A DNA stretch of 64,000 nt from an uncultured bacterium (GCA_963726455.1 CAVSCK010000004.1:1056001-1120000); one strand, 5' to 3'; shown: positions 1,419 to 44,647, numbered from the stretch's first letter. The notes: generated by a model from the sequence alone, not told the origin. Made by a program: numbers and translations.

Positions 1419-5077
<3,659 letters not shown>

Positions 5078-5158
5078 AAGTATTACCTTGACCTTTCCTG
5101 GACCGTGGATGTCGCCGTGAGCACCCATCTATCAATGAATATGACTGATGATTCTAGT

Positions 5159-10145: not shown

Positions 10146-10537
10146 CAAGTGCACCCTCCCCAAAAAACAAGTCGACAGTAACGACACCAAGTTAGTCTAA
10201 ATTCCCCGATTGTCAAGTACAAAATCTGAAAAAATTCTGGGAAGGTGTGTCACGGATTGACACAGTCGCTAGTTAAAATAGGAAGCACTGGTTTATCAGT
10301 TCCGGCGCGCAAATCAGTCTCACTGACAGAAGCTGACAGTGAGGCGATCAGTCGTCCCATGTTGGAATGGTGAACGTATGTCGCCCGAATGCGAAAGGAG
10401 GTGGGAAATCACGGACCGATGGTGACGGCGAAGTGACCACTTCAGCATCTCACGAACTGTCACCTTTTCCACAATGTTGCGTGTCATCTAGCCATCAACA
10501 GATCAACCATCACAGCAATCTAGGGAGGAATTTGCTC

Positions 10538-13288
10538 ATGATCACTGGTACAAAGCGTTACAGCATACTCAGCGAATCCTTCGTCGCTCTATCAGTAGGT
10601 CTATTGCTGATAGCGGCGGGCCTTTTCGCGAGCGGCGGTGGACCCGGGCAAAAGGCCCTGAACGAAGTAGACTCGCAGGCAAAATTCTCGATTTCGGATG
10701 CGACCAACTTGCGGTTTGACGACCTTCATCAGGGCAAGCGGCTTGACGTATCTTTTGCTGATCCAGACACCAATCAAGTAGATGTCATCAGTGTCACTTT
10801 TTTGTATGATACTCTGTTCATAGCGATTGATTCCCTGGACGCTCACCAGGCCAACGGGTATCTCGATCCCACGGCAGGCACCGTTGACTCTATCAAGGTC
10901 AAAGAGGGGCCCGGCTGGTACGAGGTCGACTGCTTCGGAACCAAGTGCGCCCGCTTCGCCGATCGAGCGATTTTCGGTCTGTGGGTAAGCACGGACTGTA
11001 TGGAGCCGGAGGCATCTACGTCCATCATAATTGCCGATGGCCAGAATCCTCCGCCTTCTGCGGCATGCCAGTTTGAGGTATGTCCTTATGGTGACTTCTG
11101 GCCCGGAATCCGTGACACAAGTACCATTGCGCTCGCTGCCGATACAACATACATGTGGTTCCTTGGACAGGACTACGGTGACAGCACGTATGTTGGCGGT
11201 CAGGTCAAGATACCGGTCGAAATCTGGTCGACTTTTGCCCCAACTCATGGTTTCGGTGTAACAATAATCTACGATACCCTGCACCTGAGTTATGACGGCA
11301 TACAGAACGATGGGACTTGCTGGGCGACCTCAGGCGTAAGTGCAACGACCTCCTTAGACACGATCTTCATTATGTGTGGGGCAAACGGCTTCGCTCGCCC
11401 ACAATATACTTATAACGTCCTCACGTACGTCAAATGGAGTATTAGAGACAGTACATCCCTAAACAGTGAGCACGAAATCAATATCATCGCCGGGTATGCG
11501 TATGCCTGCGACGATTACGGCGGGCAGGCGAATGCCACCAGTAGCTCGCACGTCAAAGTGTGGCAATATAACGCCACATTCAAACTTGACCCCATATCTA
11601 TGCCTCGCAATTGTGACTACGCACACAGAAGAACCCAATCGGCGTCGCTAAAGAGCAACTTCCCTGTCGTGACGCGCTGGGGCTCGGGAAGCAGTCTTTC
11701 GGGCATGGCGTTTCATGTTCGAGATTCAAGCAGATTCACCACACTTACCAGCGATATCGACGGGGTCGCATATGGCCAAGACACCCTCATCTCCTGGGCG
11801 GTCTCGAACCATGGCAGCGGGGGAAAAGTATTCTCCACTGATTCGTGGTGTACCCCCTTCACAATTCCACCTTCCGAGTCGTACACGACCATCGGGTATC
11901 CGACATATACGTCTGGGAACTACTTAGGTACGGATACAACACGACTCCTAGCTGTTGATACTCTGGATTGTTTTCTCATGCCGGGTTACGGAGTTCCACT
12001 AATCAATGCTCATGACAATCCAGACAAGATACACTTCATGCACGGCACTGTGACAGTCCAAAATCCTCCGCCCGGTTGTCCTTACTTGTTTGCCTGGGAT
12101 GGCGCTCGCTTCGCTGAGGAAAACACGATCGTCGGAGATATCGCCAACGGAGCCCTGGCAAAACCTGCTCTTGACTTCTATAGGCTGCAGACCCGCATTG
12201 CTCCGGACAAAGGCCACTATCGTCTGCAAATCCGGGAGTTTGAACAGGAACGGTCAACCTTCGACAACTTCACCTTGGCCGCCATTGATCACCCCGAAGG
12301 GACGACGATCAATATCACGAGTGACGGTCGCATAACGGCTCACCGTGGTGAACTGCAACCGGTGTCCGCTGTGGACGATCGAGGGGTAGACTGCTTGGCC
12401 GAAATCAACAAAGAGGACGGCATCTTCTACTCGCGGGAAACGGAGGGCTCGCTGACATTGATCTACTCAATCGGTAAGGACTTTCTCCGTCAGTCGGTGG
12501 CGCTAGAGGACGAACCGCCACCACCTCCGGGACAGAAGAAGCTTGCTGCTGATTCCGGCAGCGCTTCAGGGCCGGGTGTCATGATTACGGAGGTTCAGAC
12601 AGCCGACGGCAATTGGGTGCGCGTGGATGCTCTCGCCGACCGCGCCAACGACGCCACCGAGAATGTCGCATTCAACCTTGCCGACTTCGTAGTGGACGGA
12701 CAGATCACGATAAGAAGAAGCTGGGAAACGCGAGCGTATGTCGACAAGATTTCACTCCTGTTGCCGAGCACAGTCGCTCCGCAAGCAAACCCGCTTCGAC
12801 TTACTTATGCCGCTCATTCCCTTCAAGGCGATGTGCTGGGTCTCTTGGCTGATGCTGACGATAACGTGACGACGCTTTCGCCGGGCGAGTCGATCGAACT
12901 CAGCTTCGAAGATTCCCAGCTGCAACCGGTGACTCCCGGATACGTGCGTGATTTCGTCTTTAGTGCGAAAGGATTCTACACTTCCTACAAGACGAATGCC
13001 ACGCTTCCCGAGACCTATCGTCTGTCACAAAACTACCCGAATCCGTTCAACCCGTCGACCTCCATCTATTACAATCTGGCCACCAACTCGCGAGTTGAAC
13101 TTTCCGTATACAATGCGCTCGGCCAGAAGGTCAGAACGTTGGTAGACGAGTCGCAGCAGGCCGGCAGCCACTCGGTATTGTGGGACGGAAAGGATGACGG
13201 AGGAAGTAACGTCGCCAGCGGCGTCTACCTCTACAAACTCACAGCCGGCGATTACACCGCCTCGCGTAAGATGATCCTGATGAAATAG
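10538..13288 (+). CDS. Large secreted protein with cohesin-like module and C-terminal FlgD/T9SS-like sorting domain
   Basis: SD GGAGG before ATG 10538; signal peptide; cohesin-like GGQVKIPVEI...GFGVTIIYD; GCPYLFAWDG module; LSQNYPNPFNPST...SGVYLYKL...KMILMK tail. Confidence 0.7.
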   Translation: MITGTKRYSILSESFVALSVGLLLIAAGLFASGGGPGQKALNEVDSQAKFSISDATNLRFDDLHQGKRLDVSFADPDTNQVDVISVTFLYDTLFIAIDSLDAHQANGYLDPTAGTVDSIKVKEGPGWYEVDCFGTKCARFADRAIFGLWVSTDCMEPEASTSIIIADGQNPPPSAACQFEVCPYGDFWPGIRDTSTIALAADTTYMWFLGQDYGDSTYVGGQVKIPVEIWSTFAPTHGFGVTIIYDTLHLSYDGIQNDGTCWATSGVSATTSLDTIFIMCGANGFARPQYTYNVLTYVKWSIRDSTSLNSEHEINIIAGYAYACDDYGGQANATSSSHVKVWQYNATFKLDPISMPRNCDYAHRRTQSASLKSNFPVVTRWGSGSSLSGMAFHVRDSSRFTTLTSDIDGVAYGQDTLISWAVSNHGSGGKVFSTDSWCTPFTIPPSESYTTIGYPTYTSGNYLGTDTTRLLAVDTLDCFLMPGYGVPLINAHDNPDKIHFMHGTVTVQNPPPGCPYLFAWDGARFAEENTIVGDIANGALAKPALDFYRLQTRIAPDKGHYRLQIREFEQERSTFDNFTLAAIDHPEGTTINITSDGRITAHRGELQPVSAVDDRGVDCLAEINKEDGIFYSRETEGSLTLIYSIGKDFLRQSVALEDEPPPPPGQKKLAADSGSASGPGVMITEVQTADGNWVRVDALADRANDATENVAFNLADFVVDGQITIRRSWETRAYVDKISLLLPSTVAPQANPLRLTYAAHSLQGDVLGLLADADDNVTTLSPGESIELSFEDSQLQPVTPGYVRDFVFSAKGFYTSYKTNATLPETYRLSQNYPNPFNPSTSIYYNLATNSRVELSVYNALGQKVRTLVDESQQAGSHSVLWDGKDDGGSNVASGVYLYKLTAGDYTASRKMILMK

Positions 13289-13412: not shown

Positions 13413-14794
13413 CTAGCCGGGGTTCTCCCGGTTGTTATCAATTCCGTACTTCTTGATCTTCTCGAATAGCGTCGTGTAATCGATCTTAAGAATTTCCGCC
13501 GTCTTGCGTTTGTTGCCGTGAGTCTGCGCGAGTATCCGCAGGATCATGCCGCGTTCGGCCTGTGCCTGGGCATATTGTCCCACTTCGCGCAGTCCGGCGC
13601 CCTCGCGCAAGGCGAATTTCTTCGGTACTGGGCAGACGAATCGCCAGATGCTCCGGCTTGATCTTCTTCCCTTCCGCCAGAATGATCGAGCGCTCGACCG
13701 TGTTTTCCAGTTCGCGGACATTGCCCGGCCAGTGGTAGCGTTCGAGAATGGCGATGGCCTCGCGCGACAGCGACTTCTCCCCCTTTTTCATACGGCGGGA
13801 GTATTTCTCGACAAAGTAATTGGCGAGCGGCACGATGTCGTCGCGGCGTTCACGCAACGGAGGAATATGAATCGGAAACACCGACAAACGATAGAAAAGA
13901 TCCTCACGGAACTTCTGTTTGCCGATGGCTTCCTGCAAGATTCTGATTGGTGGCGGCAATAATGCGGACATCCACCTCAATCGGTTTGTTGCCGCCAAGA
14001 CGCTCGAATGAGTGCTCCTGCAGCACGCGCAATAGTTTCGCCTGCAGCGAAAATTCGAGATCACCGATTTCGTCGAGAAAGACGGTGCCACCATCGGCGA
14101 TTTCGAACTTGCCCATCTTGCGGGCATGCGATGAAGTAAACGCACCCTTCTCGGAACCGAACAATTCGTTCTCCAGAAGTTCGCCCGGAATGGCGGCGCA
14201 GTTGATCGTGATATAGGGTTTATTCTTGCGCTGCGACAACGAGTGGATGGCATGCGCGAACAATTCTTTACCGGTACCCGATTCGCCGGTGAGCAGAACG
14301 GCGGTGTCTGAGGGCGATACCTTCTGCACCAGCCGCGAGACTTCCAGCATGTTTTCGCTGGCGCCGATGATCTCGGCGAAACCGAGCGACTGCGCAAGTT
14401 CTTCACGCAGCAGCATATTCTCCGCAACCAGCCGCTGGTTTTCCAGAGCGCGTTCGACCAGCATTTGCAGATGATTGATGTCGAACGGCTTCTGCAGGAA
14501 ATCGAAAGCCCCGCGTTTCATCGCCTCGACAGCATTCTCGATTGTGCCGTAGGCGGTCATGACGATCACGGCGGTATCGGGGTCATGTTCCTTCACCTGC
14601 GACAACACTTCCAGCCCCGAGATGTCGGGCATCTTAAGATCGGTCAGCACCACATCGAAATGCTTCTCTTTGCTCTTGGCGATACCAATATCACCCGAGC
14701 CCGCGGCATCAACATCGTATCCTTCCGAAGTCAATGACGCCGACAACATGTCGCGCATGCTGTCCTTGTCGTCGATAACCAAAATAGCCGGCAT
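13413..14794 (-). CDS. Sigma54-dependent response regulator (NtrC/AtoC family; two frameshifts)
   Basis: REC domain (VIDDKD, LTDLKMP), Walker A TGESGTGKE, ELFGSEKGAFT, FLDEIG, REDLFYRL, WPGNVREL, Fis-type HTH. Confidence 0.9.
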
Positions 14795-14938
14795 AATTCC
14801 TTTCGCTACGGTTGGCGACAGTTGAACTGCTCCCATTCTCTTGTATCGTCATCGGCGGCAAAAGCTAAAGGGGACGGGTCAGTTGTGAAAACTACCGAAA
14901 TCGAGGAAGAGCCGGAATATTGTTGCGTTCTGAAACAG

Positions 14939-15604
14939 TCAGGCGCGTTTGGCGGCCACGAGTTGTCTGAGGAAATTGTACCAATTGTCCAGGCCGGCGC
15001 CGGTACGGCAGGAAGTCTCGAAGATCGTCAAATTGCCGTTGATGCTGAGCGCATTGCGGCGGACCCGCGCCATGTCGAAATCGGACAGGCCGAGCAGGTC
15101 GGTCTTGTTGACCACCATCACGGAAGAGCGCCGAAACATTGACGGGTATTTGAGCGGTTTGTCGTCCCCCTCGGTGGCACTGATCAACACGACCTTCATG
15201 TCTTCGCCGAGATCGTAACCAGCCGGACAGACCAGATTGCCGACGTTTTCGATGAAGAGCAGATCGACAACATTGAGATCGATTTGCGATAGCGCCTGCG
15301 TGACCATGCGCGCATCGAGATGACACGCGCCGCCGGTCACGATCGGCCGCACCAGTTTGCCACCCGCGCGCGTCAAGCGGTTGGCGTCGTTTTCGGTTTG
15401 AACATCTCCCGCAATCAGAGCAAGGCGCATTTCGGAATTGAGAGCGATGATGGTCTTTTCGAGCAGACTGGTCTTACCAGAACCGGGAGAACTGACCAGA
15501 TTGAGCGCGACAATCTTGTGTGCCGAAAGCCGCTGTCGGATGTCAGACGCCAGACGGTCGTTTTCGGATAGGACCTTCTTCTCGATGGGAATGCGATCGA
15601 CCAT
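14939..15604 (-). CDS. hypB: Hydrogenase nickel incorporation GTPase
   Basis: SSPGSGKT, GGACHLDA, IENVGNLVCPA, EGDDKPLKYP, NKTD. Confidence 0.95.
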   Translation of the reverse strand: MVDRIPIEKKVLSENDRLASDIRQRLSAHKIVALNLVSSPGSGKTSLLEKTIIALNSEMRLALIAGDVQTENDANRLTRAGGKLVRPIVTGGACHLDARMVTQALSQIDLNVVDLLFIENVGNLVCPAGYDLGEDMKVVLISATEGDDKPLKYPSMFRRSSVMVVNKTDLLGLSDFDMARVRRNALSINGNLTIFETSCRTGAGLDNWYNFLRQLVAAKRA

Positions 15605-15870: not shown

Positions 15871-16212
15871 CTACTCGGCTTCGATGAATGTGATATCCAG
15901 TTCCTGCCCTTGAATGACCTCATTGTCAGAGGATTCGCAGTTAGGACAGACGAAGATGAAATCATTCGCTTCGAAGGACAATCCGCACTTGCGGCAGGTG
16001 GCTTTGATCGGCACCGCTTCGATTTCCAGAGTGCTGCCGGCCAAAGTCGTGTCGGCGATGAGAGTATCGTAGCCAAAGCGCAACGCCTCGGCATCGACGT
16101 TGGCAAGCGCGCCGATCCGCAGGCCGATTCGCTTCAGAGACTTCAGCCCTCGTTGTTGCATTTCCCCGGTTACGGTTTCGATGATCGAGGAGGCGATTGA
16201 AAGTTCGTGCAT
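15871..16212 (-). CDS. hypA: Hydrogenase maturation nickel metallochaperone
   Basis: MHELSIA start; CRKC and CPNC zinc motifs; GQEL. Confidence 0.95.
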   Translation of the reverse strand: MHELSIASSIIETVTGEMQQRGLKSLKRIGLRIGALANVDAEALRFGYDTLIADTTLAGSTLEIEAVPIKATCRKCGLSFEANDFIFVCPNCESSDNEVIQGQELDITFIEAE

Positions 16213-16231: not shown

Positions 16232-17614
16232 CTACTTGTGAATGTGCTTGAGAAATTCCTCAACCTCAGGTACGCCGCCCTGTAAAATCAAGTATCCGTT
16301 GTAAGGTTCGCGCTCGGTGATGTCGCTGGAAATCGGAGTTAGCATCATCTCTTTGACCTTGTCCAGGTCATTGGTCTGTCCCATCACCCAGCCGAGCTTG
16401 ATATAGGCAACTTCCGGCAGCATGTTAGACAGCGGGATAATACCTTTCGACATCAGGTCGCGGCCGGTGTCGTACACGAACATGTGGACATAACCCCAGA
16501 GCGTCTGTACGGTCATGAACATGGCGACGCCACGGTCACGGGCGCGTTCGATAGCCGGATACAGTGGTTTGTTGACATGTCCGAGGCCGGTGCCGGCGAT
16601 AATGATTCCGCGATAGCCGTTGTCCACCAGTGAATCGATGATGTCGGGCTGCATGTTGGGATAGTAATAAACGATGGCCACCTTCTCTTCGAAGAAGGGA
16701 TAAACTTTCGCTTTGCGATCGGTGCGACGATGATTGTAGTCGGATTGCAGCGGCGAAATTTTCTGGCGGTTGACCATCGCGAGCGGGATATCCCCTATCG
16801 TGCGAAAAGTCGAACGATAGGAGGAATGCATTTTGCGCACACGTGTACCGCGATGCAGCAAGCCGTATTCGTCAGAAGTTGGCCCAAACATGCAAACCAT
16901 TACTTCCGCCAGATCGGACTCGGCGGCCGTTTTTGTGGCATGCATGAGATTGAGGGCGGCATCGGAGCTAGGCCGATCCGAGGAACGCTGCGAGCCGACC
17001 ATCACGATCGGCACCGGCGAATCCTGAACCATATAGGCCAGCGCCGCGGCGGTGTGATGCATGGTGTCGGTGCCGTGACCAATCACTATACCGTCGATTC
17101 CCTTTTCGATTTCGCGGCCGATGGCGATTGCCAATGTCTTGTATTGTTCCGGCCCCATGTTCTCGCTGAAGACGGCGAATAGTTTCTCAGTGGTAAGATT
17201 ACAGATGTCGGCCAACTCGGGAACGGCGCCGTAAAGTTCCCCGGGAGAAAACGCGGGAATCACCGCGCCGGTGCGATAATCAAGACGTGAAGCGATCGTT
17301 CCGCCGGTGCCGAGAAGTTTGACATACGGCCTGCCCTTGGTGATCGGAAATTCCTTTTCGGGGATCTTGTAGTGCGCCTCTTTGTAGCCGACTTCTTTCA
17401 TTGCGAGAATGGTGCTAATGGCTACGCCGACGTTGTAGCCGCTCTGGAGTTTAACGACGATATGTTGGTCGTCATCAAATTCGCTGCGAGGCAGCAGAAT
17501 GCCGCGAAAATCTCCGCGAGTCGTCTTGATTTCCGTATCGCCCCAGACGCGCATATTGAATTCTTTCAGCGTGTTCAGCGCCGCGCCCTTATAGCCCTTG
17601 AATATGTCAGCCAT
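16232..17614 (-). CDS. gatD: Glu-tRNA(Gln) amidotransferase subunit D
   Basis: N-terminal barrel (IVVKLQSGYNVG), asparaginase-type TGGTIASR, HGTDTM, GSQRSSDRPSSD, KMHSSYR. Confidence 0.92.
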   Translation of the reverse strand: MADIFKGYKGAALNTLKEFNMRVWGDTEIKTTRGDFRGILLPRSEFDDDQHIVVKLQSGYNVGVAISTILAMKEVGYKEAHYKIPEKEFPITKGRPYVKLLGTGGTIASRLDYRTGAVIPAFSPGELYGAVPELADICNLTTEKLFAVFSENMGPEQYKTLAIAIGREIEKGIDGIVIGHGTDTMHHTAAALAYMVQDSPVPIVMVGSQRSSDRPSSDAALNLMHATKTAAESDLAEVMVCMFGPTSDEYGLLHRGTRVRKMHSSYRSTFRTIGDIPLAMVNRQKISPLQSDYNHRRTDRKAKVYPFFEEKVAIVYYYPNMQPDIIDSLVDNGYRGIIIAGTGLGHVNKPLYPAIERARDRGVAMFMTVQTLWGYVHMFVYDTGRDLMSKGIIPLSNMLPEVAYIKLGWVMGQTNDLDKVKEMMLTPISSDITEREPYNGYLILQGGVPEVEEFLKHIHK

Positions 17615-19589
17615 TAGCCACCTCTTTCACGACCTGATCGTACAATTCCTTAAGCGGCACGTTCCCGAGAGCGCGTTTGCGCAGATGCCCCATAATCCAG
17701 TCGACTTCCGCCTCCGGCCTGGTTGTTCTTCTGATCTCACGGAACTTGCGTCGGAAGGCAGAAGCGTACGACATGACCTCCGCTATTGAGAAGCGCCGGT
17801 AGTCGAGAGTTATCAGGACGGATTCAAAAGCCATGTTGGGATGTTGGTAGATAACCGGCAGCATGTCCTTCAGAATTTCGCGCTCCAAATTGCGCTCTTT
17901 GGCGAACAAGAACATGCCATAGATTTTTTTGTAGGTGAAGCCGGCCGCCGGGGGAAATTTGCCTTCAATGCGTTTGAGATGCTGCGCAAAGAGTGCGGCA
18001 GCAAAACGCGGTTCCTGACTGCATTCCAGCACGATACGCTCGATCATGCCGACCAGGTTGCGCCGCAGCAGGTAGGCGAATTGATCGACCGGGACATTCC
18101 ATTCTTTCAACTGACGGAAACGGTCGGAGATGTCCAACGGCAAATCCTTTTTCTTAGCTTCGATCAGGGATTCGGGAATCGGAATCGGCGCCGAATCGGT
18201 GTCGGGATACATGCGATCGGGACCGGGCAGCACACGTTCAAAAATAGTTGTGCCGTCCGGAAGGCCTTTGCGCGTTTCGTTGGGGACTCCGACCATGGCA
18301 AGTCGGCAGCGCTCTTCGATAGTCTCGATTGCCGTCTTGATGTCTTCGGCTGGTCCCCAGATGATCAATTGCGCGTCGTTTTCCTGCGAATTCAGAAGTC
18401 TTCTAATGATCTTAAATTCGGCGTCACCGAGAACGGGTTGTAACTCTTCCGAGTGAATCAAGTTCGGCCTTTCAAGGCAGGCGATAACCTTGACGCGTTC
18501 GCTGAGTTCGTCGGCGAACATCCTGCCGGGCTGCGTGAAGAATGACAAAATTCCTTTGAACTGCGGCAGATTCATCGCTACCAAACCTGAACCGTCCGTT
18601 CTGGCCAAACTCAGAGGCAGGTATTCGGAAAATAGCAGGTCGAAGTCAATTTCCTTATGGGTCGGCCGCCACTCGCGCGCATCAGGAATACGTTCGATGA
18701 GCCGCTTGCGGATTTCCAGCAGCGCCCACTGGCGGAAGGCCTCGTTGTGGACTAACTCGGGAATCCAGCGAATGTGAGCGACGCCCTTGATTTCCACGCG
18801 GCTGCCGCCGGTGACGCTGACATTGACGTCCTCACGCGCAGCGCCGATACCGGTGCGGACTTTACCCGAGCTGCGAGCTAAGAACCGCAAGTAGTTGGCG
18901 GCTTCAGCAACTTCATCCGGGGTTTTCATGTCGGGATAAGTTACGGTTTCGATCAACGGCATGCCGAGTCGGTCGGTGGTGTAAACTCGCCAGTGCCCCT
19001 GATCCGAGACTTCCCGGCAGGCGTCTTCCTCGACACTCAACTGGATGATCCGGACTTCCTTGTTCCGGAGCGGTATCTTGCCCTCGATGGCGACGATGCC
19101 GGTTCGTTGAAAGCCGGTGGGGATACTGCCGTCCAGGTACTGCTTGCGCGTGATGTGAAACTCGCCGACAATGCTCATCTTGAGCAACAACGCCACTTCG
19201 ATGGCAATGTCGAGCGCCTCGCGGTTGACCGGAAACGGCGGCGTGTCATCGTAGTCGTAGGTGCAGGCGGTTTCCTTCTTGATGCGATAAATCACGTTCT
19301 TGCGGGTCTTGAATTCCATCAGCGCCGTACCGTCGTACTCACCCAACTCCGAGAGGGTCGGTCGCATGTGGCGGACGACTTCCTGGTCGAAATCGGTGCC
19401 TTCCTGGTAAACACCGGCCGGGCAATGGCAGAACAACTTCTTGGCCGTTCGCAGTTGCTGATGTATTTCCAGTCCGCATTTGAACCCCAGGTGGTTATAG
19501 ATTTCCGGCGAGGCATCCTTGCGTGCGACGTAGCCGACAACCTGACGGGATGAGTCATAATTATTGGTGGGATCAAGTATTTGCTTCAT
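17607..19589 (-). CDS. gatE: Glu-tRNA(Gln) amidotransferase subunit E
   Basis: GLEIHQQL, KKLFCHC, RPTLSELGEYD, RKQYLDGSIPTGFQRT, DRLGMPLIE, GAD-like insertion, GVPNETR, RMYPDTD; overlaps gatD by 8 nt. Confidence 0.92.
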   Translation of the reverse strand: MKQILDPTNNYDSSRQVVGYVARKDASPEIYNHLGFKCGLEIHQQLRTAKKLFCHCPAGVYQEGTDFDQEVVRHMRPTLSELGEYDGTALMEFKTRKNVIYRIKKETACTYDYDDTPPFPVNREALDIAIEVALLLKMSIVGEFHITRKQYLDGSIPTGFQRTGIVAIEGKIPLRNKEVRIIQLSVEEDACREVSDQGHWRVYTTDRLGMPLIETVTYPDMKTPDEVAEAANYLRFLARSSGKVRTGIGAAREDVNVSVTGGSRVEIKGVAHIRWIPELVHNEAFRQWALLEIRKRLIERIPDAREWRPTHKEIDFDLLFSEYLPLSLARTDGSGLVAMNLPQFKGILSFFTQPGRMFADELSERVKVIACLERPNLIHSEELQPVLGDAEFKIIRRLLNSQENDAQLIIWGPAEDIKTAIETIEERCRLAMVGVPNETRKGLPDGTTIFERVLPGPDRMYPDTDSAPIPIPESLIEAKKKDLPLDISDRFRQLKEWNVPVDQFAYLLRRNLVGMIERIVLECSQEPRFAAALFAQHLKRIEGKFPPAAGFTYKKIYGMFLFAKERNLEREILKDMLPVIYQHPNMAFESVLITLDYRRFSIAEVMSYASAFRRKFREIRRTTRPEAEVDWIMGHLRKRALGNVPLKELYDQVVKEVANG

Positions 19590-20028
19590 GGGCTGCTGTC
19601 AACTCCAGTAATCGGTTCCATGTCATCCGCAGCCGAAGCTTGCGGAAACGCAAATTAGGCGAAGCCATGCAGGCATTCAAGAAGATTCGACGACTTCCCG
19701 GAAAAATAGTCATGCAGCGGAGGTACTAAGCATACTGACTTAATCTGCAATTCCCCGGCCATTGTGTTGCCGCGATTTGAGACCGTTGATACTAACTGAG
19801 ATGGGGCAAACTTTGATTGGGTCAAAAATACGATGGCAAACTCTAAATAGGCCTTGACATTAGCAGAAACCTACGCTTAATTATCAATACGGTTGAGCAC
19901 CAACCTTTCAAACCGTTTTAACTTTCAGGTACTTTTCTTGAATTAGAGTAACTCACGATAATTGCAGGTAATGTAGCGCAATTGTGTAAATGGATTTTGT
20001 AACACAAACCTTATCGGAGGAGGGAACA

Positions 20029-22305
20029 ATGAGGAACATCCGTCAGGCAGTTCTGTTGTTGTCAGTCTTTTTGCTGATAGGCGGGGCAGTGTTCGCTCAG
20101 GACCCGGGTATTCCGGACACAGTTCGGCTCGCCCATGTTTCCACGAATGCCGGCCAACGCGTGGGCGTACCGGTCTACGTCATTAACGATGAAGATCTGG
20201 GCGGATATTCGCTCGGATTTATCTGGAACACGGGGGACATCAGCGTCGATTCCGTGTCGTACATTGGGACGCGTCTGTCACCCGATGTAAACAAGATGAA
20301 GACGATTAATAATCCGGCACACCGGATCCTGGTCGGCATGGCGGATTTTACGGCCGGCAATCCACTGACGCCCGGTAACGGCCTGGTATTTACGATGTGG
20401 TTCACTGTAGGCGTCGGGGTACCGGATCAGTTCGTGGACATCGATACGTCATTTTTCCCGCCGGCCGGAAAAGTGGTATTGTCTGCCACCAGCGGGGCCA
20501 GTATCACGCCCCAATATTCGATGGGACAAATCAAAATCGGCAATCCGCAACCACCGCCGGTGATCGTGTTGAGCGGAAGTCTCTTCACTTTTGACGCTCT
20601 GGTTGGTGGCGGTAATCCGACCTCGCAAGTTCAGCAAATAATCAACGGCGGTGGACAGAGTCTTAACTGGACGGCAACCAAGAATACCAGTTGGTTGAAT
20701 CTGTCGCCGATGTTCGGGACGGCACCTTCCGTAATGGTGGTAGCCGTCAACACAACGGGACTAGGAGGCGGTGTATACGTCGACACTGTGACGATTTCTG
20801 CGACGGGGGCGACAAATACTCCGCAGAAGTTCGCTGTGCAACTGACGATGACAATTCCGCCGCCAACGATAAAGCTTACACCGACGCAATTCAGTTTTGC
20901 GGCGCAACAGAATTCGACGAATCCGCCGGGGCAAAATCTGAACATTGCCAATATCGGCCAGGGCGTGCTCAACTGGACTGCGACGAAGAATGCGTCCTGG
21001 TTGACACTGTCGGGCTACAGCGGCACAGCGCCGTCCAATGTTACGGTCACGGTAGACAATACCGGACTGGTCGCAGGAGTATATGTCGATTCGATCGCGA
21101 TTGCCGATCCGACGGCCACCAATAGCCCGCAATATGCGCGCGTGACTTTCGAAGTGTTCTCAGAGTTCCCGGTGATATTGCCTGATCCGGACTCAATCTT
21201 TGCCGTCGGCAGCGACACCCAGAACCCCTATCCGCACATTTTGCTGATTAGGAACAACGGCAGCGGTGTGATGAATTGGCATGTCTCCAAAAAGTCAAGC
21301 TGGATGAGTTTCGACAAGGATTCCGGCTCGGCGACGCAGGCCGAACCGGGGGTGCTGACGCTCAATTTCGATCGCACACAGGTCTACTTCGGCCAGAGTC
21401 GCGATACGATCGTGATTACGTCGACCAACGCGATCAACTCGCCGCAGCGGGTTCCGGTTATATTCTGGAAAGCGGAAGTTCCGCAACAGCTCAATGTCAG
21501 CACTCATGCTCTCACCTTCTGGGAGTTCGAGTGCGGTAGCTATCCGGGCGTACAACCGCAAACTTTCAATGTTACGCCCAGCACGATATCGCCACCTTTG
21601 GCGTGGCATTCCACCCACAACGCAAGTTGGCTCACGGTGACTCCAACATCTGCCCCTAACGCCGCGGCGGTGACAGTGCGCGTGTCGGTGGCCGGGCTTA
21701 CACCGGGAGTTTACACCGATACGATAACGATTACATCGGCAGTGGTGATCAACCCACCGGAGAAAGTCGTCGTGACCTTCAATGTGAATCCGACTCCGGG
21801 GATAAAGAACCTGGCACTGACGCGCGATTCGCTGCTCTTTATTTACAAGTACACTCAAGTCGGATCGGCGGAGCAGGACGTAACGGTCTACAACTTCGCC
21901 GGCGGCTGTATCGACTGGCAAGCCACCGCGAATGTGCCGTGGGTGGAGGCGGTACCAAACTCGGGCACCACTACCGAGACAATTGTGGTTCGCGCCAACT
22001 CGGTTGGTGTGCCGTTGGGAAGGCATGAAGGCAAACTTATCTTCACTTCCAGCGTTGCCGCCAATTCACCAAAGAATCTGCCGGTTGTCCTCTGGATCTA
22101 CACGTTCGGGGATGCCAACGGCGACGGCTACATCGACATCAGCGACGTGGTCTACATCATGCAGTACATATTCTATGACGGTCCGGCGCCGGTTCCAGTG
22201 TTCTGGTCGGGAGATGTGGACTGCTCCAGAACGATTGACATAAGTGATTGCGTCTACCTTATTAACTACATTTTCGACCAAGGTGCACCGCCTTGTCTCT
22301 GGTAG
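20029..22305 (+). CDS. Secreted scaffoldin-like protein: cohesin-like domain, about 5 BACON-like repeats, dockerin
   Basis: SD GGAGG; signal peptide ending AVFA; cohesin-like N-domain (GQRVGVPVYV...LTPGNGLVFTMWFTV); repeats LNWTATKNxSWL...GVYVDTVTI; C-terminal GDANGDGYIDISD...GDVDCSRTIDISD. Confidence 0.75.
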   Translation: MRNIRQAVLLLSVFLLIGGAVFAQDPGIPDTVRLAHVSTNAGQRVGVPVYVINDEDLGGYSLGFIWNTGDISVDSVSYIGTRLSPDVNKMKTINNPAHRILVGMADFTAGNPLTPGNGLVFTMWFTVGVGVPDQFVDIDTSFFPPAGKVVLSATSGASITPQYSMGQIKIGNPQPPPVIVLSGSLFTFDALVGGGNPTSQVQQIINGGGQSLNWTATKNTSWLNLSPMFGTAPSVMVVAVNTTGLGGGVYVDTVTISATGATNTPQKFAVQLTMTIPPPTIKLTPTQFSFAAQQNSTNPPGQNLNIANIGQGVLNWTATKNASWLTLSGYSGTAPSNVTVTVDNTGLVAGVYVDSIAIADPTATNSPQYARVTFEVFSEFPVILPDPDSIFAVGSDTQNPYPHILLIRNNGSGVMNWHVSKKSSWMSFDKDSGSATQAEPGVLTLNFDRTQVYFGQSRDTIVITSTNAINSPQRVPVIFWKAEVPQQLNVSTHALTFWEFECGSYPGVQPQTFNVTPSTISPPLAWHSTHNASWLTVTPTSAPNAAAVTVRVSVAGLTPGVYTDTITITSAVVINPPEKVVVTFNVNPTPGIKNLALTRDSLLFIYKYTQVGSAEQDVTVYNFAGGCIDWQATANVPWVEAVPNSGTTTETIVVRANSVGVPLGRHEGKLIFTSSVAANSPKNLPVVLWIYTFGDANGDGYIDISDVVYIMQYIFYDGPAPVPVFWSGDVDCSRTIDISDCVYLINYIFDQGAPPCLW

Positions 22306-29498: not shown

Positions 29499-30463
29499 AT
29501 GTTGAAATCGACTATTTCAGGAAACTATCCCAAATTGCCTACGCAAAGGGGAGACGTTAACATTCGCCGCGTTTTGCATCGTTTCGACCAGGGCGAAATC
29601 GATCAGAAGGAAGTCGAGAACGCCTACGAAAAGGTCACCGCGCGCGTTGTCAACGAACAAATTGAGGCAGGAATTGATCTCCCCACTGACGGTCAAATCC
29701 GTTGGGACGACATTGTCACGCCGTTTGCGGGCAAAGTCGGCGGCTTCGAGATCAACGGCCTGATCCGGTGGTTCGACAATAACGTGTACTACCGCAAGCC
29801 GGTAATCGTTGACGACATCAAATGGCGGGAGCCGGTCGCGGCACCGGCATACAAGCAGGCAGCGTCTCTGACGGCCAAGCCACTTAAGGCCGTACTGCCG
29901 GGACCGTACAGCTTCGTGATGTTGTCGGAAAATAAGCATTACGCGAAGCGGGAGACTTTACTGAAAGACATGGCGACAATGTTGCGGGAAGAGGTCAATG
30001 CCCTGATTCAAGCGGGCTGTCGCCAGATCCAGTTCGATGAACCCTGCCTGGCTGATCATCCCGAAGATTGTGCAATGGCGGCAGATGCGGTAAACGGTAT
30101 GATAAAAGACTTTCCCGGCCTGTTTTGGATCAATTTCTATTTCCAAAGCATCGATAAGATAGCAAAAGAGCTGGAGCGGTTCAAAGTCAACGTGCTCTCA
30201 GTCGATTGCGTGTCGGCGCCGGGCAACTTTGAGATACTGCTTCAGTATGCCAGTCACGTACTCCCTGTTTTGGATTATTCGACGCGCGAAATATCAAGCT
30301 TGAAGACGAGAATGGCTTGCGCCGTATGTACGGCAGGATTGCCGAGCGCTATCCCGATGCTTACGTCAGTTCCTCGTGCGGACTGGAGTTTTTGCCGCAC
30401 GTAAATGCGTTGGAAAAGGTGAGACTATTGGGCCGCACAGTCAGGGAATTCCGTGGAGAGTAA
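29499..30463 (+). CDS. Split cobalamin-independent methionine synthase, N-terminal non-catalytic half (frameshift near 30260)
   Basis: TDGQIRWDD, RWFDNNVYYRKP, KAVLPGPYS, IQFDEP; continues GLFDARN...SSCGLEFLP; HxC zinc motif replaced by NFY. Confidence 0.78.
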
Positions 30464-30467
30464 GATC

Positions 30468-31434
30468 ATGTTGCCTACCACAACCGTGGGAAGTTTTCCC
30501 AAACCGGATTATTTGCAGAAGGCGCGAACGCAGTTTTCAGCCGGCAAACTGACTGAGGCGGACTTACGAGCGCTGGAATTGCAGGCGACCCGCGAAGTTG
30601 TGAGGCAACAGGAAGAAGTCGGGCTGGACATACTCGTTCACGGTGAGATGGAACGCGGCGACATGACGACCTACTTCGCGGAGAAGTTGGTAGGCATGGG
30701 AATCAGCGACCTCGTGAGATCATACGGCAACCGGTATTATCGCAAGCCGATCGTTGAGGGCGCGCTGCAACGTCCGGCGCCTATGACCGTGGAGAGTGTT
30801 CAACTATACGCAGTCATTGACATCCAAGCCCGTCAAAGGCATGCTCACCGGTCCGTACACCATGTGCGACTGGTCGTTCAACACCTACTACGAGACGAGG
30901 CGCGAAGTCGTGCTGGCGTTCGCAAGATTGTTGCATGACGAGGTTGCCGACCTGGAGAAGGCGGGAGCAAAGTATATACAGATCGACGAACCGGCAATTT
31001 CGACACGTCCGGAGGAGCTTGATCTGGCTATCGAAGCGATGGGAATAGTGACCAACGGCATCAGGGCGAAGACGATTTCGCATATCTGCTATGGAGATTT
31101 CAAGACGATCTATCCGCACATTCTCGACTTACCGGTCGATCAGCTTGATCTGGAGTTTGCCAATTCGGGATATTCCAACCTCGACATCTTCCGCAAGCCG
31201 AAATTCCGTAAAGAGATCGCGTTTGGTGTGCTCGACATTCACAGCCATCGGGTCGAAAGCGTCGACGAAATCGTGGCGGGTATTCGCAAGGGGCTGGATG
31301 TATTTGATGCGGACAAGATGACTATTGATCCTGATTGCGGCCTCAAAACACGCACCACTGAAGAAGCATTCGCTAAATTGCGCAATATGATAGCCGCCGT
31401 TCGACAGGTAAAGGCGGAACTGAATTTTAGCTGA
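30468..31434 (+). CDS. metE: Split cobalamin-independent methionine synthase, catalytic half (frameshift near 30795)
   Basis: LPTTTVGSFP, GLDILVHGEMER, KGMLTGPYT, IQIDEPA; zinc ligands HICYG, LE, DPDCGLKT. Confidence 0.88.
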
Positions 31435-36965: not shown

Positions 36966-37442
36966 TTACTTACTCACGGTCTTGGCGGCAATCCAATTCT
37001 TCACCGCAGTTAAGGCCGTTTCCACTGATTTCTCGACTTGCGGCGTCATTTGTTCGCCGAGAGTTTCAACATCCTGCGCCTCAACTGCCAACACCTGAAT
37101 GTCTTTGGGCATCGCCATCTGCAGTTGTGTTCCGAGTTCAATGGCGGTTGGCAAATTGATCTGGTGGCTGTTGATGAGATTGTACGACGGCGTCAACGCA
37201 CCGGCGGGGAAAAAATGAACCGTGCCCGGCCGGGATTTGCCGGTTATGATCGCATCGACAATGAGAACCGCCTTGCGGCCTTTCAACAAATCCAACAATC
37301 CGAATCCGGCGGTCGGGGCAAATATCACTTCGACCATATCGTGATCGAGGCCGTTTTCATTCAGCCGGCGGGCAACCGCAGGGCCGAATGAGTCATCCGA
37401 AAGTATGTCGTTACCCAGGCATAAGATGAGAAGTGGTGTCAA
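36966..37442 (-). CDS. Hydrogenase maturation protease
   Basis: LCLGNDILSDDSFG, LIVDAI, NSHQ; overlaps the mvhA stop by 4 nt. Confidence 0.9.
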   Translation of the reverse strand: MTPLLILCLGNDILSDDSFGPAVARRLNENGLDHDMVEVIFAPTAGFGLLDLLKGRKAVLIVDAIITGKSRPGTVHFFPAGALTPSYNLINSHQINLPTAIELGTQLQMAMPKDIQVLAVEAQDVETLGEQMTPQVEKSVETALTAVKNWIAAKTVSK

Positions 37443-38923
37443 ACGTTCCTCCGAGCAGTCTGGATTATTTCACCGGTTGCAGCATCATGTATGATTAATT
37501 CCAGCGGCATTTCGCCGGGAAGCGTGTGAGTCGCGCAACCAAAACAGGGATCGTACGCACGAAACGCCATTTCAATTCGATTGAGAATTCCGTCCGTAAC
37601 TGTCACGCCCTTCTTGATCAATCCCTCGGCGGCTTTCTTGATCGACATAGATATCGGCGCGTTGTTGTTGGTGGTGCCGACGATCAGGTTAGCTTCAGTG
37701 ACTATGCCGTTCCTGTCGGTCTTGTAGTGATGTGTCAGCGTCCCGCGCGGAGCTTCCACGATTCCGACCCCTTCGCCGACGATGCCGGTTGGCGGTTCGA
37801 GGATTTTGTCAGACGTGATTTCGTCGTCCTGCGCCTGCTCCAAAGTCGCCTCGGCGGCAAACATCAGTTCGACCACGCGAGCCCAATGAGTGGCCAACGT
37901 CGAATGAATCGGAGTCTTGCCGGTGCGGTCACCGGTCAGAGTTTCATACATGCGTTCGTATTCGGCCTGCGCCAGCGGGGTCGCCATACCGTCTGCCACG
38001 TTGCAGCGTGACAGCGGCGTCGCTTTGTACACACCCGAATCCATGCCGTCGACGAATCCCTTCCAGCCGACCTTCTTCAGGTACGGATACTTGAGATAGC
38101 TGTACGGCTCGACGTGTTCGGCGACATATTCGAGATAGTCCTTTGGCTCATATTCGGCGTGCTTGCTGCCGTCGGGAGCAGTAACTCTCACCTTGCCGTC
38201 ATAGAAGTTGGTCTTGCCGTTCGCATCCACCAGACCCATGTTGTAAGTCTTGTGCGTGAACATGTCGGAAATGATCAGATCGACATAACCCTTGTTCGCG
38301 AGCACGATGTCGTTCAACACCTGAATCGTGAACTTGGCGAACTCGACCATGCCCTTCGCCAGCTCGATAATCTCCTGCTGTTCTTGCTTGGTAACACGCT
38401 TGGTATTGCCGCCAGGAACAGCCGTTACCGGATGCACCTTCTTGCCGCCGATGATTTCGATTACACGTTGTCCGGCGGCACGCTGAGCAATAACTTTCTT
38501 GCCGGCATCAATTCCGACCTTGGCTACGACGCCGAGGATATTTCGTTCAGCCGGCGGCGCATCAGGACCGCAAACGAAATCGGGGCCACCCAGCGCATAG
38601 AAATGCGTGGTGTGGTCGCCCGCGTAGAACGCGTTGTACATCAATTCGCGCAACTTACGAGCTGCACTCGGAATCGTAACACCGTACACTGCGTCCGCTG
38701 CCTTTGCGGCAGCGAGATGATGCGCATCGGGACAGACGCCGCAAATGCGTGTCGTGATGCGGCACATTTCCTCGACCGGACGACCCTGCGCGAATTTCTC
38801 GAAGCCGCGCAGTTCCGGAACCTGGAAATAGCAGTTCGCCAAGCCGCCGTCATCATTGACGAACAGATGAATCTTGCCATGCCCTTCGAGACGGGTGATC
38901 GGGTCAATCAGTATCTGTTTCAT
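37439..38923 (-). CDS. mvhA: [NiFe]-hydrogenase large subunit, group 3c type
   Basis: DPITRLEGHG, RICGVC, EAPRGTL, AYDPCFGCATH plus cleavable C-terminal extension. Confidence 0.93.
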   Translation of the reverse strand: MKQILIDPITRLEGHGKIHLFVNDDGGLANCYFQVPELRGFEKFAQGRPVEEMCRITTRICGVCPDAHHLAAAKAADAVYGVTIPSAARKLRELMYNAFYAGDHTTHFYALGGPDFVCGPDAPPAERNILGVVAKVGIDAGKKVIAQRAAGQRVIEIIGGKKVHPVTAVPGGNTKRVTKQEQQEIIELAKGMVEFAKFTIQVLNDIVLANKGYVDLIISDMFTHKTYNMGLVDANGKTNFYDGKVRVTAPDGSKHAEYEPKDYLEYVAEHVEPYSYLKYPYLKKVGWKGFVDGMDSGVYKATPLSRCNVADGMATPLAQAEYERMYETLTGDRTGKTPIHSTLATHWARVVELMFAAEATLEQAQDDEITSDKILEPPTGIVGEGVGIVEAPRGTLTHHYKTDRNGIVTEANLIVGTTNNNAPISMSIKKAAEGLIKKGVTVTDGILNRIEMAFRAYDPCFGCATHTLPGEMPLELIIHDAATGEIIQTARRNV

Positions 38924-39900
38924 TGCTGCACCCTCCTTAACATCGAAGTCGGCAAGCTGAACCGATAGAACGTTCCCAGGGGATCAGGAATTGTATCCAG
39001 AATCTGTTCGACCTCCTGCTCGTCGATGGAATCTATCACACTCGCCAATGCCGACGCCATCTTGGCGCCCTGATCGCGCACGTTGGACGGCAACCCGTAG
39101 CAACCGCGACACGGCACACCCGCTTTGACGCACTTTGCGCCACATCCTGAACGCGTCGCCGGACCAAGGCAGACAATCCCCTGCTCCATCAGGCAAAGGT
39201 CGGGATCGGTGACCTTTTCAAAGGGACGAATGAACTTCTTGATCTTCTTGACATTGCGCTGGCGCGGGCATTCATCGCAACAGGATTTTTCGCTGGCGCC
39301 CAGCACCGTGCCTTTCGGCGGCAGCGGCTTGCTGTTCTTGAGAATGTCAACGACGGCATCAATCACAGCCGCGATCTGATTTGACTGTGGCGGACAACCG
39401 GGAATGATGTAGTCGACGTCCACGACCTGCGGAAGTGTGCGGACGGTGTTCCACAGGAACGGAATATGAACCATGCCTTCAGCAACTTTCACTTCCGGCT
39501 GCGGCATGATGCCGTTGCCCGGTTCCAGTGACGGCGACAGTTTGTAAACATATTCCATGATCGATTGTTTGTCATAGAAGTTTGCCAGTCCGGGAATACA
39601 ACCTTCGGAAGCGCAACTGCCAAAGGCGCACAGCACGACCGATTTGTCCCGCAGCAGGCGCGCGATTTCATAATTCTCGTCACTGCGAATCGCGCCATTG
39701 AAAAGAGTGAGTGTGATTTCTTTGTCCTGCATCTTGCGAACGTCGTCATACTTGAAATCAAGGGCGCAAGGCCAGAACACAATGTCGAAGAAGTCGGCGA
39801 CCTCAAGGATCTTCGCCTCGATATCGAGAATCGCGACATCGCAGCCCCCGCAGGAGGAGGCCCAGTATATTGCTAGTTTCGGTTTTGCCATCTTGCTCAC
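38920..39900 (-). CDS. mvhG: [NiFe]-hydrogenase small subunit
   Basis: SSCGGC, FGSCASEG, PGCPP, CCDECP, CLGPATRSGCGAKC...PCRGCYG. Confidence 0.92.
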   Translation of the reverse strand: MSKMAKPKLAIYWASSCGGCDVAILDIEAKILEVADFFDIVFWPCALDFKYDDVRKMQDKEITLTLFNGAIRSDENYEIARLLRDKSVVLCAFGSCASEGCIPGLANFYDKQSIMEYVYKLSPSLEPGNGIMPQPEVKVAEGMVHIPFLWNTVRTLPQVVDVDYIIPGCPPQSNQIAAVIDAVVDILKNSKPLPPKGTVLGASEKSCCDECPRQRNVKKIKKFIRPFEKVTDPDLCLMEQGIVCLGPATRSGCGAKCVKAGVPCRGCYGLPSNVRDQGAKMASALASVIDSIDEQEVEQILDTIPDPLGTFYRFSLPTSMLRRVQQ

Positions 39901-40355
39901 TCCCCTGCCGCGACGGCAGCAGCTTCCGCCTGTTCAGGTACGAACGCCCATTCCTGCAAACGTAGCGGTCCGAGCGCACGAATCTGCGCGGTAAAGCTGT
40001 CGACCACTTCCTGAAAACGGGCTCCTTCAGATGCCGACACCCATTCGAGACGCAGGCGTTCCGGGGAGATACCCATGCCTTTCAGAATCCGCTTGGTGAT
40101 TGCCACGCGACGCATGCACTTGTGATTCCCCTCGACATAGTGGCAGTCACCGAAATGGCAACCGCACAAAAGCACGCCGTCAGCGCCGGCGCGAAACGAA
40201 TCGAGAACAAACCCGGGATCGACGCGGCCGGAACACATCACGCGCACCGTCATCACATTAGGGGCATACTTCATGCGCGCGGTGCCGGCCAGATCGGCTC
40301 CGGTATAACTGCACCAATTGCAGAGAAATCCGACAATACGTGGTTCGAAACTCAT
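39897..40355 (-). CDS. mvhD: Hydrogenase iron-sulfur subunit ([2Fe-2S] adaptor)
   Basis: GFLCNWCSYTGADLAG, VMCSGRVDP, GCHFGDCHY, WVSASEG. Confidence 0.95.
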   Translation of the reverse strand: MSFEPRIVGFLCNWCSYTGADLAGTARMKYAPNVMTVRVMCSGRVDPGFVLDSFRAGADGVLLCGCHFGDCHYVEGNHKCMRRVAITKRILKGMGISPERLRLEWVSASEGARFQEVVDSFTAQIRALGPLRLQEWAFVPEQAEAAAVAAGE

Positions 40356-42115: not shown

Positions 42116-42119
42116 ACTC

Positions 42120-44129: not shown

Positions 44130-44647
44130 GCCGCCTCCGTTCCGCTTGCGGATTTCTTCTTGTGCAGCAACTCATCAAGCATCTTGTCAACCTTGGTGAC
44201 CGTCATGTGGCCGTAGTAGACTCCGTTTGCCGTCACCAACGGACCCAGGGCGCAGGCGCCCAGGCAGTTGACAGTTTCGAGACTCACTTCCCCGTCAGGA
44301 GAGGTGTCTCCTGACTGAAGTCGAAGATCGCGCTCCAGTTTGTCGACAATCACTTTCGCCTGCCGAACGTGACAGGCCGTGCCCGTGCAGACGCAGATAT
44401 GATTTCTGCCGGTCGGTTTGAGCGTGAAGGCGCGATAGAAAGTCGCGACACCGTAAATTTGAGCCAGCGGCAGTTTCATGTTCTTGGACACTGCGCGCAA
44501 TGCGTCCTCCGGCAGATAGCGATAATGCTTCTGAATATCCTGAAGTATCATAATCAGCGCGGTCGGTTTGGCGCCATATTCGCCGACGATCTCTTCAATC
44601 TTGCTGTCGAGATCATAGGCGGTGTTAGCTGCAACTGTTATGGTCAT
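44126..44647 (-). CDS. NuoE/HydC-like [2Fe-2S] subunit
   Basis: LQDIQ..YLP, GVATFY, VCTGTACHV, NCLGACALGP. Confidence 0.93.
   Translation of the reverse strand: MTITVAANTAYDLDSKIEEIVGEYGAKPTALIMILQDIQKHYRYLPEDALRAVSKNMKLPLAQIYGVATFYRAFTLKPTGRNHICVCTGTACHVRQAKVIVDKLERDLRLQSGDTSPDGEVSLETVNCLGACALGPLVTANGVYYGHMTVTKVDKMLDELLHKKKSASGTEAA

Follow-up and report, generated by a model that had tools for sequence, protein, structure and literature searches.

A 64,000-nucleotide stretch of the chromosome of an uncultured bacterium (GCA_963726455.1, CAVSCK010000004.1:1056001-1120000; hereafter the window) carries, within positions 16232–19589, the genes gatE and gatD, encoding the two subunits of the tRNA-dependent amidotransferase GatDE. 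The interpretation favored here, to which we assign a probability of roughly 0.55, is that the pair specifies an active GatDE from a bacterial branch of the family, which amidates a bacterial-type Glu-tRNA(Gln) alongside glutaminyl-tRNA synthetase (GlnRS). It is based on the equivalog scores and catalytic residues of the two proteins, the match between a structural model and solved GatE chains, the gene order, evidence of selection and a native nucleotide composition, as well as on the U1-A72/G73 form of the host tRNA-Gln genes and an Arg-to-Thr shift in a GatE loop. Activity, substrate and physiological role are what we infer from this body of evidence, the mechanism by homology with the archaeal enzyme.

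Identity and catalytic residues of the gene pair

Both genes are read from the minus strand. The gatE open reading frame (ORF; 17607–19589) encodes a 660-residue kinase/transamidase subunit, and the gatD ORF (16232–17614) a 460-residue asparaginase-type glutaminase subunit that includes a GatD_N domain. The gatE stop and gatD start overlap by 8 nt (17607–17614, minus strand, ATGGCTGA), with the gatD ATG lying within the end of gatE, an arrangement that suggests translational coupling. Assignment to GatE, GatD or GatB was decided by the NCBIfam equivalog models and their cut-offs. GatE scored 481.1 bits on NF003107 (cut-off 456) and 412.8 bits on TIGR00134 (cut-off 319.55), and GatD scored 506.4 bits on NF003217 (cut-off 310) and 502.3 bits on TIGR02153 (cut-off 324). 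On all six GatB models the GatE score stayed at 57–123 bits, below cut-offs of 314.8–680 (119–123 bits for TIGR00133 and NF004012, versus cut-offs of 314.8–338), and a GatB identity for this protein was rejected on that basis. By these sequence criteria the genes are a true gatE and gatD, encoding neither GatB nor a plain asparaginase. The first-pass annotation had described an intact, overlapping gatE-gatD pair with catalytic motifs, and this description is borne out; a grouping with GatB or the asparaginases, which it had also contemplated, can be set aside.

Domain and structural comparisons point in the same direction. The Pfam GatB_N model (277 positions) is stretched across GatE residues 37–477, and GatD contains the Pfam domains GatD_N, Asparaginase and Asparaginase_C. 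Sequence matches in the PDB were 2d6f_C and 1zq1_C for GatE, and for GatD 1zq1_A (391 bits, residues 35–442) and 2d6f_A (383 bits). An AlphaFold2 model of GatE (pLDDT 93, pTM 0.90) found its best fold matches in 1zq1_C (Pyrococcus abyssi; TMt 0.84) and 2d6f (Methanothermobacter thermautotrophicus), with TMt values of 0.79–0.84 and superposition across 512–536 columns. GatE thus consists of a cradle domain, into which an AspRS-like domain is inserted, and a helical C-terminal region; the insertion is apparent from both the GatB_N span and the model superposition, and the model also yields weak fold matches to AspRS chains (E 0.017–0.06).

The residues expected to support catalysis are all in place. 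Mutations reported in excerpts of PMC2330236 identify H15, E157 and E184 as essential Mg ligands of M. thermautotrophicus GatE, and in an alignment these correspond to H43, E187 and E214 of the window GatE, which are invariant among 60 bacterial and archaeal sequences. GatD carries the motifs GTGGTIAS (residues 102–109), HGTDTM (180–185) and VRKMH (259–263), identical in both solved GatD chains, whose roles as Thr nucleophile and Thr-Lys-Asp triad are assigned partly after the same excerpts of PMC2330236. Nearly all columns of the three motifs are invariant in an alignment of 69 bacterial sequences.

A bacterial clade of GatE

The family tree was built from one representative per 50%-identity cluster, the best 150 of 625 clusters found at E ≤ 1e-30 being taken and 137 full-length rows entering a FastTree analysis. 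These rows formed two groups, each with a support of 100. Five named members were found among ten looked up in group B (84 rows), all of them archaeal (Thermoprotei, Parvarchaeota/Jingweiarchaeum, Methanofastidiosum, Heimdallarchaeota and Thorarchaeota), while every bacterial locus falls in group A (53 rows), whose other members are likewise bacterial as far as they carry names (of ten looked up, one, from Deltaproteobacteria). A profile search retrieved names such as KSB1, Calditrichia, Aminicenantes, Latescibacteria, Krumholzibacteria, Desulfaltia and Clostridiales, and none of the 120 matches listed bore an archaeal name. Within group A the window GatE belongs to a sub-clade, here termed F-type, that has a support of 100 and a stem of 0.5 changes per column; the remaining bacterial GatE of this group are termed A-type. 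The host's class contains both types, the A-type in genomes G024, G027, G031 and G033, and the window GatE groups with the GatE of the host's own family.

The relationship of the bacterial clade to its archaeal counterparts was addressed in a second analysis, in which the archaea were represented by clusters within the best 150 matches, the model was LG+G4 and six bacterial GatB served as outgroup. A quick IQ-TREE run rooted in this manner placed the bacterial clade beside a Heimdallarchaeota-labelled representative. A tree constraining the archaeal rows to one clade, however, lay 17 log-likelihood units above the quick tree (p-AU 0.70), and in the approximately unbiased (AU) test an archaeal-clade tree with the bacterial clade outside it was not rejected. 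An archaeal donor next to Heimdallarchaeota was therefore considered and dropped; no donor is named, and the constrained archaeal-clade tree is the better one. Judging from these sequences, the bacterial GatE clade is single and deep, in a manner compatible both with an archaeal origin and with an age equal to that of the archaeal clade.

The breadth of this clade became evident when one genome of each prokaryotic species was scanned, which yielded at least 599 candidate stretches, 571 of them coding for relatives. From these the best 80 loci were kept, at 52–63% identity, and all 80 have bacterial record titles. The taxa among them include Bacteroidales, Marinifilaceae, Lentimicrobiaceae, Saprospiraceae, Neomarinimicrobiota, Ignavibacteria, Cloacimonadales and Chlorobiota. 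Cultured strains of Marinifilum, Labilibaculum and Perlabentimonas account for nine of the 80, so that a binning artefact is not at issue. A protein collection gave at least 8000 matches at E ≤ 1e-20, many of them labelled GatE by NCBI or JGI pipelines, confirming the earlier supposition that similar bacterial copies might already be in databases. The window is one ordinary member of this bacterial GatDE clade, and its genes had already been correctly named by such pipelines.

Organization and sequence are well conserved across these loci. Wherever both genes were called (70 loci), gatE is followed by gatD on the same strand, with a spacing that ranges from a 17-nt overlap to a 33-nt gap in 66 of them and is wider in others (128 and 188 nt in two loci, ~1.2–1.3 kb in three), and the lengths of both proteins are nearly fixed. 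No conserved neighbor besides gatD was found across the best 80 loci. Bacterial GatD proteins, from records titled Bacteroidota, Neomarinimicrobiota, Ignavibacteria, Cloacimonadales and others, are 70–84% identical to the window GatD, and 197 of its 460 columns are invariant among the 69 sequences compared, a level of identity that implies strong purifying selection.

The window pair itself blends into its surroundings. Its GC content, GC content at third codon positions (GC3) and tetranucleotide make-up do not stand out within the window (rank 2 of 61 windows), and this native composition, together with the 1.9-Mb length of the contig, gives no sign of the chimeric assembly that had been raised as a concern. 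Its affinities suggest that the pair was most likely inherited within the host lineage, and not recently imported. The horizontal acquisition proposed in the first-pass annotation, if understood as a recent or isolated transfer, is made unlikely by the native composition, the large bacterial clade and the outcome of the AU test.

The host and its tRNA and aminoacylation set

The host genome comprises 3.64 Mb in five contigs, the window being located on the 1.9-Mb contig, with an estimated completeness of 100% and contamination of 2.1%. The closest named GatE proteins, among the matches listed, are from metagenome-assembled genomes (MAGs) of Zixibacteria (63–67% identity), and one genome of the host's family has a GatE identical to that of a Zixibacteria MAG; the host is probably a member of the Zixibacteria.

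Both host tRNA-Gln genes (CUG and UUG anticodons) have the bacterial form, with a U1-A72 pair and G73. No archaeal-like tRNA is therefore involved, and the expectation of an archaeal-like tRNA-Gln accompanying the pair fails. The synthetases encoded in the genome include AsnRS (split over two frames), a bacterial AspRS and a single bacterial GluRS, in addition to GlnRS, while asparagine synthesis is represented by AsnB (frame-split, 335 + 168 bits); AsnA was not found in the genome. GatB was likewise not found, the sole genomic match to TIGR00133 being GatE itself, and GatA had no match over its cut-off (the best, an amidase, scored 201 bits versus 481); GatC was not searched for. The checks recommended in the first-pass annotation thus returned a GlnRS gene, neither GatB nor GatA over cut-off, one bacterial GluRS and U1-A72 tRNA-Gln. 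A reading of gatED as required for Gln-tRNA synthesis is at odds with the presence of GlnRS, AsnRS and AsnB.

A gene for tRNA-Asn was detected neither by ARAGORN (46 tRNA genes) nor by Rfam (45) in the host genome, all other amino acids being covered; since contig C2 both starts and ends inside tRNA genes, the missing gene probably resides in an assembly gap. An AsnRS-like paralogue (G000:C4:1647399-1648400) consists of the catalytic core only (model positions 117–451, 154 bits, one in-frame TAA), and by its sequence could be an asparagine synthetase related to AsnRS, a possibility relevant to how this organism makes asparagine. A tRNA-Sec gene (G000:C3:131302-131395) indicates that the host probably uses selenocysteine.

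Departures from archaeal GatDE, A-type GatE and GatCAB

The window proteins resemble archaeal GatDE (M. thermautotrophicus 2D6F; P. abyssi 1ZQ1) in having two subunits, the same domain order, equivalog-level scores, the Mg ligands, the GatD motifs and a common fold (TMt 0.79–0.84), while the window GatE shares ~30–40% identity with archaeal cluster representatives. They differ in residing in a bacterial host that possesses GlnRS and whose tRNA-Gln carries U1-A72 instead of A1-U72. The traits found together in archaeal members, A1-U72 tRNA-Gln and an archaeal host devoid of GlnRS, are thus absent from the window host; they characterize the archaeal members known so far, as opposed to the fold itself.

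Further differences are located in regions of GatE that may contact tRNA. Excerpts of PMC2811023 describe a short, positively charged and well-conserved loop in GatE that replaces the 3-10 turn with which bacterial GatB reads U1-A72. When 117 F-type, 57 A-type and 83 archaeal sequences were aligned, position 246 of this loop is Arg in 96% of archaeal sequences and Thr in 88% of the F-type, and is divided between Arg (47%) and Thr (45%) in the A-type; the window GatE has Thr246. Positions 250–251 are Thr-Ile in archaeal and Ala-Ala or Ala-Gly in bacterial GatE, the window having Ala-Ala. An N-terminal extension of ~23–30 residues (residues 1–30 in the window GatE; window 19500–19589, minus strand) is kept in the F-type and absent from archaeal GatE. 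In the same way, a GatD C-terminal extension of ~20 residues (REPYNGYLILQGG...; residues ~437–460, window 16232–16306, minus strand) is conserved in the F-type and absent from archaeal proteins.

The GatE tail, where known members have a YqeY-like domain that reads the tRNA D-loop, has also diverged. NF003107 aligns up to model position 615 of 630, and residues 485–660 are modelled as helices with pLDDT values of 85–96, but the F-type tail consensus, 'WiMGqlr..A.GN', differs from the archaeal 'lmg..M...rg..dg'. To the extent that sequence comparison can tell, the changes in loop, tail and extensions fit an enzyme re-tuned to a bacterial tRNA, and they do not indicate which tRNA this would be. 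The altered GatE specificity offered in the first-pass annotation as the alternative to an archaeal-like tRNA-Gln remains plausible, given that the loop on the 1-72 side and the tail differ systematically from their archaeal GatE counterparts.

A-type GatE forms one clade with the F-type (support 100) and shares with it bacterial-specific motifs in the cradle domain. It is ~640 residues long, lacks the N-terminal extension and keeps the GatB_Yqey tail, and is 40–46% identical to the window GatE. The GatB subunit of GatCAB has a paralogous kinase/transamidase core in common with the window GatE; unlike GatB, the latter contains an AspRS-like insertion, and it lacks both the GatB 3-10 turn and the Lys-rich tail motif. 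Its partner is the asparaginase-type GatD, instead of the amidase GatA together with GatC. Bacterial GatCAB, according to excerpts of PMC2811023, reads both U1-A72 and the D-loop.

Proposed function and competing explanations

By homology with the archaeal enzyme, GatE would bind the mis-acylated tRNA and phosphorylate its side-chain carboxylate using the Mg site formed by H43, E187 and E214. GatD would hydrolyse Gln or Asn by means of the Thr nucleophile of GTGGTIAS, the Thr-Asp of HGTDTM and the Lys of VRKMH, and the ammonia released would move from GatD to GatE and form the amide. The likeliest substrate would be Glu-tRNA(Gln) carrying U1-A72, read via the altered loop (Arg to Thr at 246) and the remodelled tail. 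Such an enzyme would provide an accessory route parallel to GlnRS, either repairing Glu-tRNA(Gln) made by GluRS or allowing conditional synthesis of Gln-tRNA; because GlnRS, AsnRS and AsnB are present, this route is considered accessory and not essential.

Several observations weigh against this assignment. The host GlnRS scores 739 bits, so that GatDE is not needed for Gln-tRNA synthesis and a Glu-tRNA(Gln) amidotransferase (Glu-AdT) fills no evident need. In 44 other bacterial genomes with F-type GatDE (of unknown completeness), GlnRS is over the cut-off in 41, and in a class set consisting of the host and 40 relatives (41 genomes) it is over the cut-off in 32 and matched in all 20 genomes of the host's family. 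Neither a second nor an archaeal-type GluRS was found in the host. Whether its single GluRS makes Glu-tRNA(Gln) at all could not be decided from a residue marker, R358 of Thermus thermophilus GluRS (position hand-counted from the HMMER alignment), a residue involved in reading C36. The host Arg at this position, R364, was dropped as a sign of discrimination when Arg was encountered in 41 of 41 class genomes; it is uninformative because it also occurs in genomes without GlnRS, which must have a non-discriminating GluRS. The window GatE has no match to Pfam GatB_Yqey (PF02637), a domain recorded in few close relatives, among the matches listed, and in most of the A-type, and a tail this diverged could signify a different tRNA target. 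Finally, three other genomes of the genus retain both gatED flanks (67–82% nucleotide identity) and no gatED, so the genes are dispensable there. Insertion and deletion in the genus could not be told apart by reconstruction, as the flanks in G001 and G003 are on separate contigs with other neighbors.

Co-occurrence within the class helps to define what GatDE is not doing. Of the 41 class genomes, 21 have a GatE over the cut-off, as do 15 of the 20 in the host's family; AsnRS passes its cut-off in 38 of the 41, and a GatB-like gene accompanies GatE in many GatE-bearing class relatives (partial matches, confirmed in three genomes). In the host's class the joint presence of GatDE and a GatB-like gene fits the archaeal division of labour, in which GatDE serves Gln and GatCAB serves Asn. 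GatDE replaces neither GlnRS nor, in this class, GatCAB, and is an extra. The A-type, too, is found together with GlnRS in three of the four class genomes carrying it. The fourth, G027, has an A-type GatE match with one in-frame TAG (G027:C1:147816-149687) and a GatB-like gene, and no GlnRS match; in that bacterium GatDE may be part of the only route to Gln-tRNA.

The main rival, itself unlikely on balance, is that GatDE, having become adapted to U1-A72, stands in for GatCAB and acts on Asp-tRNA(Asn), either by itself or in addition to Glu-tRNA(Gln), thereby providing a tRNA-dependent route to asparagine as GatCAB does in Thermus and Deinococcus. Bacterial tRNA-Asn has a U1-A72 pair like tRNA-Gln. 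Among the 44 genomes with F-type GatDE, GatB is over the cut-off in only three, with one additional frame-split copy, so that an intact GatB is missing from 40 of 44 as well as from the host; AsnB is over the cut-off in 27 and AsnA in 10, and 14 have neither at the thresholds used, a figure without a control group and drawn from genomes whose completeness is not known. On the other hand, AsnRS is over the cut-off in 43 of the 44, the host has both AsnRS and a (frame-split) AsnB, and GatDE in the host's class mostly co-occurs with GatB-like genes. The archaeal GatDE, moreover, does not use Asp-tRNA(Asn) according to excerpts of PMC2811023 and PMC2330236. For GatCAB itself, coexistence with GlnRS and AsnRS is described in excerpts of PMC4206432 for Thermus, Deinococcus and Bdellovibrio.

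A more doubtful proposition is that the F-type has taken on a new function, acting on another acyl-tRNA or on a non-tRNA carrier with its kinase and amidase chemistry kept. The long F-type stem described above would be in line with this, as would the extensions and tail, conserved within the F-type and unlike those of archaeal and other bacterial GatE, and the full direct aminoacylation set of nearly all hosts, which leaves no obvious canonical job. Yet the whole GatE architecture, including its tRNA-binding regions, is confidently predicted by the model and superposes on solved GatE; there is neither a conserved third gene nor a nearby tRNA to point to a new pathway; and the A-type, with its ordinary tail, shows the same association with GlnRS in three of four class genomes.

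It is also rather improbable that the window pair is a dispensable remnant from an ancestral indirect route, made redundant by GlnRS and heading for the loss seen in sister species. Its absence from all three other genomes of the genus despite conserved flanks, and the presence of GlnRS, AsnRS and AsnB in the host, are what this explanation would predict. However, neither ORF is broken, in an assembly that has many frame-split genes, all catalytic residues are retained, and the same redundancy has been stable over hundreds of species under strong constraint. As for a recent horizontal import from an archaeon, requiring an archaeal-like A1-U72 tRNA-Gln, the otherwise archaeal renown of the family and the position beside Heimdallarchaeota in the quick GatB-rooted tree lend it some color, but it is highly improbable in the face of U1-A72 in both tRNA-Gln genes, the lack of any tRNA by gatED in the window (and in 46 of 48 related loci scanned, the other two having tRNA-Leu and tRNA-Gly), the native composition, bacterial nearest relatives in all of the best 80 loci and the superior likelihood of the tree with archaea in one clade.

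Returning to an active GatDE alongside GlnRS, a broader evolutionary formulation may be put forward tentatively. The bacterial GatDE would be an old monophyletic lineage, sister to the sampled archaeal GatE instead of nested among them, whose F-type, within the FCB group, was re-tuned through its loop, tail and extensions to bacterial U1-A72 tRNAs for a job beyond that of GlnRS and AsnRS. This job might be to police tRNA-Gln and tRNA-Asn that have been mis-acylated, or it might be a dual Gln/Asn role that replaced GatCAB.

Genomic context

Directly downstream of gatD on the minus strand are the hydrogenase maturation genes hypA (15871–16212; Pfam HypA), which starts 19 nt past the gatD stop, and hypB (14939–15604; Pfam CobW/HypB). 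They are context, not a conserved partner of gatED. They lie 20 kb from a NiFe-hydrogenase cluster (36966–45633, minus strand) that comprises large and small subunits, MvhD/FlpD-like, NuoF-like and NuoE-like proteins and a HycI protease.

On the other side, gatE and a gene for a 771-residue BACON-domain protein (19990–22305, plus strand) diverge from a 400-nt intergenic region (19590–19989, from the ORF map), within which the gatE promoter is presumed to reside. No sigma-70-like site above chance was detected in this region, and promoter and terminator scans returned fewer sites than in shuffled sequence. A search with Rfam families gave no match across the window, and a look-up of sequencing runs listed neither RNA nor DNA.

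The bacterial flanks reported in the first-pass annotation are genuine insofar as they include a sigma-54 response regulator, here frame-split (13486–14836); the TonB-domain gene is real as well (TonB_C, 57080–57994), but it is located ~37 kb from gatED and is no close neighbor. Other bacterial neighbors are a gene for an M1 peptidase and one for a 973-residue protein with a type IX secretion system (T9SS) C-terminal sorting domain and FlgD-Ig (10367–13288, plus strand). Proteins with T9SS tails and BACON domains are typical of the Fibrobacteres-Chlorobi-Bacteroidetes (FCB) group and support the taxonomic placement of the host.

Frame-split genes are found in the window (the sigma-54 regulator, MetE at 29499–31434 and a POR subunit at 4262–5128) and elsewhere in the host genome, G000 (AsnRS, C4:623033-624303; AsnB, C3:71780-73460; AspRS, C3:660694-662480). 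Because essential genes are affected, these are read as assembly indels, and not as decay or pseudogenes.

Implications for the GatDE family

Three publications, as far as their excerpts go, restrict GatDE to archaea (PMC2330236, 2008; PMC2811023, 2009; PMC9499178, 2022), and passages in reviews invoke its co-evolution with A1-U72 tRNA-Gln to explain why archaea never adopted GlnRS. A literature search, with most subscription journals outside its coverage, found no paper on bacterial GatDE, and the bacterial clade seems to be undiscussed in print and biochemically uncharacterised. The archaea-only view is incompatible with a large and constrained bacterial clade that exists beside GlnRS and U1-A72 tRNA-Gln. 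This clade is also a natural experiment on how tRNA identity rules can change in an amidotransferase.

The finding raises anew the possibility that GatDE arose before the archaeal lineage did. Should the bacterial GatDE prove to be an old sister branch, the status of GatDE as an archaeal signature protein would be overturned, and this would be relevant to the proposal, which an excerpt of PMC9499178 attributes to Sheppard and Soll, that GatDE predates the split between the domains. Since hosts such as Marinifilum, Labilibaculum and Perlabentimonas are in culture, the function of the bacterial enzyme is directly testable.

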